From UHGV virus genome UHGV-0114939: a stretch of DNA of 35,289 bases; one strand, given 5' to 3'. This stretch comes from a virus. The notes beneath the pieces are model-generated. The model searched no databases, was not told the origin of the DNA, and saw only the letters and a program-made list of their open reading frames with translations. A program made the translations under genes and the position numbers. Numbering within the stretch: the first letter of the stretch is position 1; each line of letters opens with the position of its first letter. Shown here one piece after another: positions 2,911 to 21,646 of this stretch.

Positions 2911-3007
2911 AGCGATAGCTTTGTGATTGGCCCGTTATTTTCTGGCTGATATTTGAGCGTATAACAGTGTTATACAGTGATATACTGTATGGATATTACT
3001 CACTGAT

Positions 3008-3463
3008 ATGGTCTTTGCAATGAGCAAATCTAATCTGGTCGCGTTCCGCATCCCATCTGAATTGCAGGATGAGTTTAATCGGTCTGTTCTCGCTTCTGGA
3101 GGGGATAAAACCTCCTGGCTTGTTGATGCGATTCGCATGAAGCTGGGACAGCCGGAAAAGTCTATTGATTCACGAATGCTTGGGCTCGTGGAGCGCATGG
3201 AAAAAGCTGCTGCGTCGCTTATTGCCGGAAAGCCGAACATCCCACCAAAGCCATATAACGAAACGGCAGTTATAAAGATCATTGCCGATACCATCCGACA
3301 GGGATTTGATAATGGGCGTGTGATAGCTGAACGGATCAATGAAGCAGGCTATCAAACAAAAGCTGGTAAAGCGTGGGATAAAGATATTTACAGCGCGTGG
3401 AAGCGTCAGGGAAGCAATGCTGAAAAGTTAAAAGCGGTGATTGATTGTAAGGTCAGCGTATAA
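3008..3463 (+). CDS. hypothetical protein, possible ribbon-helix-helix DNA-binding N-terminus
   Basis: ATG at 3008 (alternative ATG at 3020). N-terminal SNLVAFRIPSELQDEFNRSV has a beta-strand/helix pattern like RHH regulators. Operator-like palindrome TACAGT-GATAT-ACTGTA at 2973-2989 lies just upstream. Confidence 0.5.
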   Translation: MVFAMSKSNLVAFRIPSELQDEFNRSVLASGGDKTSWLVDAIRMKLGQPEKSIDSRMLGLVERMEKAAASLIAGKPNIPPKPYNETAVIKIIADTIRQGFDNGRVIAERINEAGYQTKAGKAWDKDIYSAWKRQGSNAEKLKAVIDCKVSV

Positions 3464-4102: not shown

Positions 4103-4275
4103 GGTGTTTTGCTGTGGCAGTGATATCAGAAAAATCTTCCTGTTTCACATAAAGCGGATATGCGCGTACTGTAACGGCCCCATCAACTGGGAGCGGATTT
4201 GAGCCCCGAATGTGTAGGCAATGTCACTTAACGTTTGTCGCATACCTTCCAGAAAAAGCGATTCATGAATAATAG

Positions 4276-15624: not shown

Positions 15625-15815
15625 TTTTCACCACCAAGAATTACCAGCTCTGCACGAGCATCGTTAACCAAAGATGAGCACGCTTTAATCGCATCCACGA
15701 CATCAGCAGCGTCCATTTCTTCAGCCGAAAGACTGACAGCAACCAGGACAGCCGCTGCTTGCTCGATTAATTGAAGTGCGGACGTAAGTCGAGGGGCATT
15801 AATTGAGTTATTCAT
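15621..15815 (-). CDS. hypothetical small protein
   Basis: Internal ATG at 15815 (Met20 of the track ORF) preceded by a GGGGG-type RBS. Confidence 0.45.
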   Translation of the reverse strand: MNNSINAPRLTSALQLIEQAAAVLVAVSLSAEEMDAADVVDAIKACSSLVNDARAELVILGGEK

Positions 15816-16836
15816 TGGTTGCCCCCGTTTTTCCTGGCATTTCGCCACCTTCCAGCAGGAAATGAACGTCACGAACGGCGAGATCCAATATCGCGAGTAA
15901 CGCCTTCAGTCTTTCGTCTCGTGAGGGAGAGTTGCTCACCAGAATGTCGTTAATCACTTCTGTCAGTGTGATGATCTGGCTTGTGCGTTCGAGGGGATCC
16001 ATATGCACATCGTAGGTTTTAATCATGTGCCACCTCCATGCGGATACGACCAGCAAAAAAGCAGACGTGATCGCGCACCAGAGAACGGCGAGCATCGCGT
16101 TCAGACTCGGCAGCAATATGATGAATTTTGGCGGTAATTGTCGGGCAATCGCGGCGAACTGCGGCGATAATCCAGATAAATTGCGGTTTTTGGGTAGGGG
16201 TAGTAGCCAGCATGTGGCAGCCTCCTTGATTGATGGTTTATAGCCACCGCCGGAGGTCCTAAGCTCGCTGGCGGTGGACTGTACAGGGTTAGGACTACTG
16301 GCAATCAAGGAAACCAGCCTGACCGAAGTCAGCCCCATACAGCCCACCATTGATAAGGTGTGCGTGTGCGCCGATACAAAAAAAGACGCTGGCGCGTCAT
16401 GTATCGCCTCGATTGCCTGCGGGGTCCTAATCCCGGCACCCGTTTTATGAGGTGCCTTATAACCATAAACCGTGTTGCCGCATAACGGCAAGCTCTTTTT
16501 TATGGACTCCGAAAACTCAGTATTGGAAGCACCAGATGCACAGTACATCGCGCTCATTTCGTTAACGTCACGCACGTGGACGAATGTTTTTGTGGAGTCA
16601 CTACACGAGCGGAAGACATCATCTACGACCAGAAATTTTCTGGCGCAGCCGCTGACCTTCTCAATGCTAATATCATCGCCCGAGATTTCTGGTATGGTTA
16701 AGGCATCCGTTCCGGCCACCAGCAAATGATAAACTTTGCTTGTATCTGCTGTATTAATGCCTGACTTTGCCGTCATATTTCTGGATTTTGGCGACATACC
16801 AGCCAGTGAAAATGTCTTCTTCTGGATGGGTATCAT
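15808..16836 (-). CDS. hypothetical protein (342-codon open frame; may be composite)
   Basis: ATG at 16836 with GGAGGT RBS and ATGA overlap with the upstream gene, so the start is credible. Internal ORFs with strong RBS at 16213 and 16026, and GC-rich hairpins at 16245-16277, leave the true extent uncertain. Confidence 0.4.
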
Positions 16837-17012
16837 TGGTTAACCTCCGCGAACTCCTTCATGAAACGCGCCAGCGGTTGTACGCATGGCGATTGATACC
16901 CGTCGCGATAAAACGTCACTCGGTTGTGAGACACGCTTTCGACAGTAACGAGTGCTCCGTGGGCATCTTTGTAGCGTTTTTGAGGTTGTGGTGTTCCTGT
17001 CGGCTTAAACAT
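16833..17012 (-). CDS. small conserved prophage protein (DUF4222-like?)
   Basis: Internal ATG at 17012 (Met30 of the track ORF) with GGAGG RBS; 8-nt overlap with the upstream gene; MFKPTGTPQPQKRYKDAHGALVTVESV... Confidence 0.45.
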   Translation of the reverse strand: MFKPTGTPQPQKRYKDAHGALVTVESVSHNRVTFYRDGYQSPCVQPLARFMKEFAEVNQ

Positions 17013-20443: not shown

Positions 20444-21646
20444 ATGAAATACAAGCCTAATGCGTACCTTGTTAAAGAAAACTCGTCGGTATACTCCGTC
20501 AAGGTCACTATTCCGCCTTATATGCGTTCCCTTTTTGGGAATCGAACAGCATTCATGCGTACAACAGGCACGGCAGATATCAGGGAAGCCCGAATCATTC
20601 GTGACAAAGTCATGCACGAGTTTTTTGCTATCAGAGACAGACTCAAGCCAAAACCACAACGTAACAGTGTTGATCGCGTCCTGGTGGAACTGCGCTCTAT
20701 CAACCAGCATGTAAGCCAAAATGATGGGATAGACTTCGCCACGGCTCGTGTGTGTCCCTCCCTTGTCCAACTGCGGGATGAATTTATTGTCCAACACAAT
20801 GACAGGCGCAAGCTGTCTACCTTGAGCAAGTACATTAAGGCGGTGGAGGTCTTCACGGCTCATTTCCGGCGTAAGGATTTCCAGTTGCAGGAAATCAACA
20901 GGACTATGGTCACCGATTGGTTAGACAGCGCCAAGCAGGAGAAAGCCAGCCAGACACTGGCGAATTATCTTGGCTGTCTGTCCCAACTAGTGGCACTGGC
21001 TCAGAACCGTTATCACGATGCGCCGAAAGAGAATGTATTCGCGGGCCACAAACTGGACGTGCGCCATGATCGAGAAAGCTACGAACCCTTTAGCGGGGAT
21101 GAACTAGCTAAGGTGTATGCGGTGCTTGATGAAGAGATGAAAGCCGTTGCGATGGTGGGAATGTATAGCGGTATGCGCCTTAACGAAATCTGCTCTCTGC
21201 AAATCAGCAATATCAAAACCGTTGAGGGGGTATGGTGTTTCGAGGTGACGGAGGGTAAGACACGCAATGCGGCTCGCCTGGTTCCAATTCATAGCCGATT
21301 GACGACACTCGTTAAAGACCTCATCCAGAACAACCACAATGGCTTCTTATTCTACCATGCCAGCATCACAGAACGTGCAGACGGCAAGCGCTCAACGTGG
21401 CATACACAGCGATTTACACGGGCTAAACGTAAAGCGTTGGCTGAGAAAGGCACTGAGCGGAAGGTGTTTCATAGTCTGCGGGGAATGTTCATCAGCCAGC
21501 TTGATCGTGGTGGAGTCCCAGAGGACAGGATCGCATTGATTGTGGGTCATGAGCGCGGGAAAACCGAATCATTCCGCACCTATAGCCAAGGGGCTAGCAT
21601 GAAGGAGTTGGCGGATTATGTAGACATTGTCTCACATAGCATATAA
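20444..21646 (+). CDS. tyrosine integrase (site-specific recombinase)
   Basis: ATG at 20444 with GGGGGA RBS. Catalytic-region motifs HSLRGMF and RTYSQG. Diverges from the att core, opposite the element A integrase. Confidence 0.85.
   Translation: MKYKPNAYLVKENSSVYSVKVTIPPYMRSLFGNRTAFMRTTGTADIREARIIRDKVMHEFFAIRDRLKPKPQRNSVDRVLVELRSINQHVSQNDGIDFATARVCPSLVQLRDEFIVQHNDRRKLSTLSKYIKAVEVFTAHFRRKDFQLQEINRTMVTDWLDSAKQEKASQTLANYLGCLSQLVALAQNRYHDAPKENVFAGHKLDVRHDRESYEPFSGDELAKVYAVLDEEMKAVAMVGMYSGMRLNEICSLQISNIKTVEGVWCFEVTEGKTRNAARLVPIHSRLTTLVKDLIQNNHNGFLFYHASITERADGKRSTWHTQRFTRAKRKALAEKGTERKVFHSLRGMFISQLDRGGVPEDRIALIVGHERGKTESFRTYSQGASMKELADYVDIVSHSI

Follow-up and report, generated by a model that had tools for sequence, protein, structure and literature searches.

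In P1, ant follows icd and is the gene that is ultimately controlled. In the P4 genetics of Forti et al. from 1999, nonsense mutations in eta are said to lead to termination. An open reading frame (ORF) that resembles eta is described here in the virus genome UHGV-0114939, of which the whole stretch analysed (35,289 nucleotides, nt) is called the window. As summarized by Mageeney (2023; PMC10111431), P4 possesses a constitutive promoter inside eta, Kil is made on occasional read-through, and full-length eta is made only from an upstream late promoter, its translation preventing termination. According to the same text, the Rfam models C4 and isrK detect relatives of CI and seqA in several Gram-negative phage-inducible chromosomal islands (PICIs), within Bro genes of these islands, and Phage_ASH is counted among the domains of the Bro network. 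IsrK is a structural homologue of P4 SeqA (Hershko-Shalev, 2016; PMC4825925), and orf45, which belongs to the isrK-orf45-anrP system of Gifsy-1 and the Stx phages, has conserved nucleotides and variable amino acids (PMC4825925). With a probability of roughly 85 %, we consider the locus in the window to be the immunity and early-control region of a P4-like satellite island of the PICI type, in which a C4-type system like those of P4 and P1 is set within an eta-like read-through frame.

The C4 and isrK RNAs and their targets

Seventy loci from species-representative genomes were sampled via Icd alone, using a three-sequence Icd alignment, so that the sample was independent of whether a long ORF exists. 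All locus coordinates refer to the minus strand unless the plus strand is stated.

An Rfam scan of the whole window gave exactly two matches above the gathering scores, C4 and isrK, both of them within the long ORF and on its strand (Table 1). The C4 match spanned model positions 1–87 of 87. Its three-helix fold comprised 28 pairs, with 99.5 % of cells paired and 16 pairs changed on both sides; slid controls gave 29–49 % paired and three to eight double-changed pairs, and none of 500 shuffles attained the observed values. The isrK match was associated with two 5' hairpins and an intrinsic terminator in addition to its score, and compensatory changes were detected in eight of 15 pairs. The related model RF03163 (c4-a1b1) reached its threshold in locus L002 only and not in the window.

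Segment a' of C4 was complementary to a1 and to a2 over 7 nt each, and segment b' formed a perfect 10-nt complement with b2 that covers the Shine–Dalgarno region of icd. Among the 70 modules there were 13 variants of a' and 26 of b', each paired with its own a1/a2 and b1/b2. Mean perfect complementarity of the cognate pairs was 7.0, 7.0, 7.4 and 8.6 nt, compared with 4.4–4.8 nt for non-cognate pairs. On the plus strand, the motif GGTCCTAA (UUAGGACC in the RNA) was found at positions 16255 and 16423 and at no other site in the window. The count alone is not significant (two observed against 0.55 expected, with at least two in 11 of 100 shuffles), but the repeat is not a product of chance, because its reverse complement lies in C4 (16295–16289) and the three sites co-vary across the 70 related loci.

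The 5' arm of the stem-loop that presents a2 doubles as the 3' strand of the C4 closing helix, and the stem-loop itself is conserved, with compensatory changes in five of eight pairs (66 sequences). The leader as a whole (16455–16205, 251 nt) folded at z = −3.95 relative to shuffles, and in its minimum-energy fold the a1/b1 region pairs in cis with the a'/b' region.

These results bear on the first-pass annotation of the window, which had been made from the letters alone and had envisaged a structured regulatory RNA of the P4 CI/P1 c4 type at this place; such an RNA was indeed detected by the Rfam scan, together with isrK, inside the ORF. The repeated motif that it had pointed out is GGTCCTAA, present twice, and the two sites are C4 targets. 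Its strong hairpin is real, although the span extends one base past the 16245 that had been given. The analogy that it drew with ant-containing operons was only partly right: C4 is present, but antA lies upstream of C4 and so, unlike in P1, is not the RNA-controlled gene.

Promoter-like hexamers occur within the long ORF at the position of P4 PLE, and the 5' G of isrK at 16455 is the would-be +1 of this putative internal promoter. In most of the 67 unique upstream sequences, that of P4 among them, the pattern TTGC..(18 nt)..TA.(A/G)GT stands at a constant distance from the 5' end of isrK; upstream sequences of the Pantoea type and of the L002/L011 type are without the TTGC −35.

A second, diverged copy of C4 (73.8 bits) was observed in the Escherichia coli element NZ_CP075697 (L004 3080–3167, in ORF 2925–3389). 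This copy is part of another Ash-Icd-like ORF, which follows immediately upon the first isrK-C4-icd module, so that the immunity cassette is duplicated in tandem.

Conservation of the open frame

Of the 70 loci, 69 had C4 upstream of icd and 68 had isrK as well; locus L010 has C4 and no isrK match, and the one locus left over is truncated at its end. Between the 5' end of isrK and the icd ATG, the same frame was free of stops in 70 of the 72 unique modules, whilst the other two frames always contained at least one stop. The isrK-to-C4 spacing took nine values (98, 101, 125, 128, 140, 143, 146, 176 and 185 nt), all equal to 2 modulo 3, the only exceptions being L062 (139 nt) and the non-icd locus L003 (100 nt), and single-base indels were offset by others nearby. 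No stop fell in the long frame within the variable spacers (5,033 nt), compared with 83 and 25 in the other two frames. The corresponding numbers were one against 20 and 138 between C4 and icd, and two against 100 and 73 in the 75 nt upstream of isrK.

Entropy by codon position was flat over isrK (0.49/0.58/0.49) and over C4 (0.55/0.59/0.57). Over icd it was dominated by the third position (0.42/0.41/1.04), and substitutions there tracked the icd frame and not the long frame. The frame is kept open, yet there is no codon-position signal over the RNAs, and selection therefore appears to act on openness and not on the peptide. Judged from these alignments, the frame is maintained and the peptide encoded over the RNA genes is without protein-type selection. 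The pattern fits a system in which translation matters as an act, as has been proposed for P4 eta, and argues against an 'Ash' protein domain.

Composition of the long ORF and the Phage_ASH match

The long frame is made up of a lineage-specific N-terminus, isrK, C4, the a2/b2 leader, the +1 frame over icd and, in frame, the small gene orf72. Its ATG overlaps the stop of the upstream DUF4222 ORF (ATGA) and precedes the isrK 5' end by 381 nt; the frame stays open to 15808. The Pfam family Phage_ASH (PF10554) matched residues 124–219 with 54 bits (gathering score 26). This match corresponds to nt 16467–16180 and takes in isrK, C4, the spacer between them and the a2/b2 leader as far as the icd start. 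The third-position excess of a selected protein sequence was absent over the matched stretch, and the Phage_ASH similarity can be explained at the level of the RNA. The simple form of this explanation, in which the ORF is spurious and Phage_ASH is nothing but translated RNA, was dropped in view of the full-length homologues in other genera and of the frame being kept open.

The N-terminal 110–150 codons were wholly different among sister elements, with the exception of the last 15–20 codons, which overlie the promoter. A 107-nt part of this region in the window (16582–16688) showed about 90 % identity to a portion of 'DNA-packaging protein' genes from other E. coli, DH5alpha among them, a hint that the N-terminal extension is mosaic and consists of pieces of phage genes. 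In the sister elements L012 (2058–2188) and L013 (1870–2205), the extension contains, just 5' of the internal promoter, two to three direct copies of a 22–42-nt unit (TTTCGAGACCAGTACGCGCACGCG...) whose translation gives a recurring 'TSTR..EGEF' motif; these repeats may be regulator-binding sites. Direct repeats were also searched for in the N-terminal extension of the window, and none was found.

A 516-amino-acid fusion protein, P0085, is encoded in 15 contigs of a related island (L076 6001–7551; also L077 and L078). It joins the first 120 residues of the long ORF to residues 39–439 of a gp20-like ejection protein (compare 16836–16477 and 9080–7875 in the window). The RNA module, icd, the primase, DUF2824 and gp7 are missing from between the two parts at these loci, C4 and isrK were not found in L076, and the arrangement is consistent with an internal deletion. 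A gp20-like domain in the N-terminal 120 residues was considered and rejected, as the match to P0085 is the product of the deletion fusion and there is no similarity to the window's own gp20-like protein.

icd, orf72 and the position of the reading frames

The 64-amino-acid ORF matched the NCBIfam family NF033153 ('host cell division inhibitor Icd-like') at 3.7e-20 and 71.7 bits, against a cut-off of 25, and on sequence grounds it is predicted to be an Icd/Kil-like cell-division inhibitor gene. The ATG of orf72 overlaps the icd stop by 8 nt. Protein-level conservation of orf72 extends to Klebsiella, Pluralibacter and Symbiopectobacterium; its substitution pattern is of the coding type, and it had no family match in Pfam, NCBIfam or PHROG. 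It occupies the same position as P4 epsilon; homology with epsilon was rejected, since the two could not be aligned.

Several parts of this arrangement had been recognized in the first-pass annotation. The start at 16836 with its GGAGGT and its ATGA coupling, the alternative-frame ORF of 64 amino acids behind AAGGAGG and the in-frame Met at 16026 behind GGAGGTG were all recovered (Table 1). Of the further possibilities listed there, overlapping genes proved correct, the alternative-frame ORF being the Icd-like gene. A frameshifted gene holds only in the narrow sense that one base is missing relative to the P4-type arrangement, so that icd and the long frame no longer coincide.

The P4 situation, in which icd shares the long frame and its stop closes the ORF, holds for 66 of the 72 modules. 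The distance from the start of C4 to the icd ATG is 142, 139 or 145 nt in these 66 modules and 141 nt in the window, and the base that is missing lies in the spacer between the Shine–Dalgarno sequence and the ATG of icd (GGAGGCTGCCACATG in the window against GGAGGCTGCCGCTATG or GGAGGCTGCCATCATG). Compared with the closest in-frame relative, L002, which has the same antA-DUF4222 context, one missing spacer base is the sole relevant change (GCTGCCACATG against GCTGCCGCTATG). Owing to this one base, icd and the long ORF are in different frames, and the long ORF continues into the next gene.

The 141-nt arrangement was also found in L001, L006 (Escherichia sp.), L014 (Symbiopectobacterium) and the Klebsiella loci L080 and L082. 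In these loci the long frame crosses icd in +1, joins the orf72 frame and ends 208–211 nt past icd; at the protein level, the fusion to orf72 is seen in the Pluralibacter protein P0109. The +1 frame across icd is free of stops in about two thirds of all modules, in-frame (P4-type) ones included, and selection on the extension past icd cannot be shown for this reason, there being only about six out-of-frame lineages from which to judge selection on a stop-free +1 frame.

Island context and existing annotation

The gene order of the island, known here from gene content (Pfam matches), fits the sequence Integration-Bro-Replication-Late, with the genes co-oriented (Table 1). Its late zone appears to be a set of P22-type DNA-ejection proteins directly downstream of the primase. 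At least 80 % of a 1.5-kb query from the region is carried by about 480 of 5,426 complete E. coli genomes, and the 264-nt RNA module alone also precedes Rha/Ant genes in Stx and other prophages.

Table 1. Positions of the features of the locus and of the surrounding island in the window
Feature	Position	Strand	Remarks
Integrase	20127-18913	-	
AlpA	18485-18282	-	
orf143	between AlpA and AntA	-	
AntA	17838-17005	-	
DUF4222 ORF	between AntA and long ORF	-	
Shine–Dalgarno GGAGGT of long ORF	16843..16848	-	6 nt 5' of ATG
Long eta-like ('ash family') open frame	15808..16836	-	342 codons; from ORF list
Promoter-like hexamers in long ORF, at P4 PLE position	16462..16491	-	-35 TTGCCG (16491-16486), 18-nt spacer, -10 TATGGT (16467-16462)
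isrK RNA, RF01394 (P4 seqA/P1 a1b1 equivalent)	16379..16455	-	63 bits; gathering score 50
Target a1, UUAGGAC	16430-16424	-	in second isrK hairpin loop
Target b1, CAAUCGAGG	16415-16407	-	within isrK
Intrinsic terminator of isrK	16398-16378	-	found independently of Rfam
C4 antisense RNA, RF01695 (P4 CI/P1 c4 equivalent)	16267..16354	-	80.2 bits; gathering score 45
C4 loop b', UCCUUGAUUG	16311-16302	-	
C4 a', GUCCUAA	16295-16289	-	single-stranded junction
Stem-loop CCACCGCC...GGCGGTGG	16244..16277	-	target a2 (UUAGGAC, 16262-16256) in loop; P4 seqC-like element
Target b2, CAAUCAAGGA	16232-16223	-	overlaps icd Shine–Dalgarno AAGGAGG (16227-16221)
icd/kil-like gene	16019..16213	-	64 amino acids, frame other than long ORF; NCBIfam NF033153; AAGGAGG 5'
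orf72, nested in-frame small gene	15808..16026	-	72 amino acids; Shine–Dalgarno GGAGGTG 16037-16031
Six small ORFs	between RNA/icd locus and primase	-	
DUF927/Toprim primase	13848-11089	-	
DUF2824, P22 gp7-like, Inj_translocase (gp20-like) and SLT/gp16-like ejection proteins	10326-5158	-	

A second tyrosine-recombinase gene (Phage_integrase and DUF6538; 20444–21646, plus strand) adjoins the island integrase and diverges from it, which points to another mobile element next to the island or to a tandem island site. In the related island L076, an int-alpA RNA (RF02996, 60.6 bits) lies at 4160–4226, just after the integrase; the corresponding place in the window had no Rfam match above the gathering score.

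Existing records treat the locus in different ways. RefSeq gives a 342-amino-acid 'ash family protein' at L079 765–1793 and leaves icd unannotated, whilst a 98 %-identical genome (L001 3553–4082) has a pseudo 'ash' fragment and a 'host cell division inhibitor Icd-like protein'; C4 and isrK are absent from both records. The PHROG families of the region carry the label 'transcriptional repressor', which probably derives from the old annotation of P4 cI as a protein.

Discussion

If the locus works as P4 does, a constitutive promoter within the long ORF would start transcripts at the isrK 5' end, most of these would stop at the isrK terminator, and those that read through would be processed into a stable RNA of the C4/CI type. 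Pairing of C4 would, as in P4 and P1, block translation of icd and let transcription end before the replication genes, so that the island would be quiescent. By the same analogy, the genes controlled by C4 would be icd, the small ORFs and the primase downstream, and not antA. Because the long frame starts 5' of the internal promoter and is coupled to the alpA-antA-DUF4222 operon, only transcripts with a more distant upstream start can serve for its translation. On such transcripts, ribosomes crossing isrK, C4 and the a2/b2 leader would be expected, as proposed for P4 eta, to shield the RNA from termination and so to permit escape from immunity. Selection would then bear on the open frame and not on the peptide over the RNA genes.

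Some observations weigh against this interpretation. Two of the 72 modules (L035 and L062) break the long frame, the 9-nt match between b' and b1 requires one G-U pair, and a generic sigma-70 promoter scan did not call the internal promoter, which was recognized through its conservation instead. In addition, P4 eta closes in frame with kil, and the long ORF here does not do so with icd, which makes the P4 model only partly transferable; the steps of promoter use, RNA processing, Rho-dependent termination and long-frame translation are carried over from P4 and P1.

An ordinary functional protein of 342 amino acids, whether of the 'ash family' or a regulator of the Bro network, with the RNA motifs incidental to it, would account for the Phage_ASH match, for the good Shine–Dalgarno sequence and coupling of its start, for its annotation as a protein in some RefSeq genomes and for the numerous full-length homologues of 328–355 amino acids, which include Klebsiella proteins at 43–52 % identity. 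We regard it as unlikely, given that the Ash segment coincides with isrK and C4 and lacks there the codon-position signal that is clear in icd, that substitutions over icd follow the icd frame, that the N-terminal 110–150 residues are unrelated among sister elements and that the C-terminal 72 residues have a Shine–Dalgarno sequence and an ATG of their own. The same pattern, with nucleotides conserved and amino acids variable, is known from orf45 (PMC4825925). The first-pass annotation had named a single conserved protein of about 340 amino acids without RNA covariation as the finding that would speak against its proposal; 'ash family' homologues of 330–355 amino acids do exist, but the RNA covariation is strong and there is no conservation at the codon level.

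The unconserved amino acids over the RNA part agree with a chance ORF that is never translated, in which only the RNAs, icd and orf72 would be real. PGAP marked the ash ORF as a pseudogene in the 98 %-identical genome, and the extension past icd needs no selection, as the +1 frame is so often stop-free in P4-type loci too. Such an ORF is nevertheless a shade less probable still than an ordinary protein, for chance does not explain the lack of stops in the variable spacers, their scarcity in the 75 nt 5' of isrK, the agreement of nine spacing classes modulo 3 or the compensation of single-base indels nearby. The termination that eta nonsense mutations reportedly bring about in P4 counts against it as well. 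It is very improbable indeed that the window holds a decaying, frameshifted pseudogene of a P4-type eta-kil gene, even though the one missing base is the only relevant change compared with L002: the one-base-shorter arrangement recurs with intact icd, Shine–Dalgarno sequence and orf72 in L006, L014, L080 and L082, and these copies differ in a'/b' specificity and in spacer length. Several genera thus share the arrangement with diverged specificity, which argues for a stable, long-lived architecture and not for recent decay.

A more far-reaching proposal, which extends the read-through interpretation, is that the out-of-frame icd is a functional variant of the P4 eta/kil design and not a neutral slip, with an Ash-Orf72 fusion replacing Ash-Kil, and that Phage_ASH more generally represents a frame held open only for the passage of ribosomes. 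We put this forward tentatively and think it rather doubtful. Were it true, escape from immunity would be separated from the making of a toxic division inhibitor, and the Phage_ASH family would amount to no more than a shadow cast by RNA genes, its peptide unselected.

The practical gain lies in annotation, as current records lack the RNA genes that are predicted to set immunity. Neither the Phage_ASH family nor the PHROG label 'transcriptional repressor' should be taken to indicate a protein regulator. The 13 a' and 26 b' variants with their matched targets form a map of immunity specificities, which could be used to predict cross-repression among satellites. The P4 genetic result is extended to about 70 enterobacterial elements, in which the frame, and not the peptide, is preserved through two structured RNA genes.

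Comparison with known systems

In P4 (NC_001609), the isrK and C4 models matched 8692–8615 and 8507–8420, both within a 214-codon ORF (8812–8168) that has Phage_ASH at residues 37–161 and an Icd-like match at residues 161–208. The last 65 residues of this ORF (P4 Kil) were 39 % identical to the Icd-like protein of the window, and the ORF is eta with the nested kil gene. P4 and the window have an alpA/vis-like gene upstream in common, as well as a long ORF with its start ahead of the internal promoter and the order of elements on one strand. In both, an isrK-type RNA with the upstream targets and a terminator is followed by a C4/CI-type RNA, then by a downstream target overlapping the Shine–Dalgarno sequence of the Icd/Kil-like gene; the next gene overlaps the kil/icd stop by 8 nt, and a primase lies further downstream. 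They differ in that P4 kil is the in-frame end of eta, whereas the window has icd out of frame and a long ORF that is 211 nt longer and ends with an unrelated 72-amino-acid gene. The isrK-to-C4 spacing is 101 nt in the window and 185 nt in P4, the a'/b' specificities are unlike, and orf143, antA and DUF4222 are additional genes between alpA and the long ORF. Among the window proteins scanned, sid, psu and delta of P4 were not seen, and the late zone consists of P22-like ejection genes.

The four zones (Integration, Bro, Replication and Late) are shared with the Gram-negative and helper-embedded PICIs as presented in the available text of PMC10111431, in which neither the out-of-frame icd arrangement nor frame-conservation statistics of the present kind were found. 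With the isrK-orf45-anrP region of Gifsy-1 and the Stx phages, the locus has in common an isrK with a terminator followed by a C4-like processed RNA (STnc1160) inside an ORF (PMC4825925), and the 264-nt module of the window was 87–91 % identical to the Stx-phage copies. In those phages the module stands before an antirepressor of the Rha/Ant type and lacks icd, and IsrK is a trans-acting activator of translation (PMC4825925).

The immI region of P1 and P7 resembles the window: its C4 RNA likewise has two recognition segments with matched targets on either side, the downstream target covers the ribosome-binding site of icd, and an Icd-like protein is present in both. The P1-like phages RCS47 and D6 were about 70 % identical to the 291-nt module over 94–97 % of its length. 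The antirepressor that follows icd in P1 has no counterpart at that position in the window, where antA lies upstream of the RNAs and orf72, further small ORFs and the primase lie downstream. What is new at this locus is the out-of-frame icd architecture, together with the comparative evidence for conservation of the frame rather than of the peptide; the kind of system is unchanged, and the locus is a member of a known system that is well explained rather than new.

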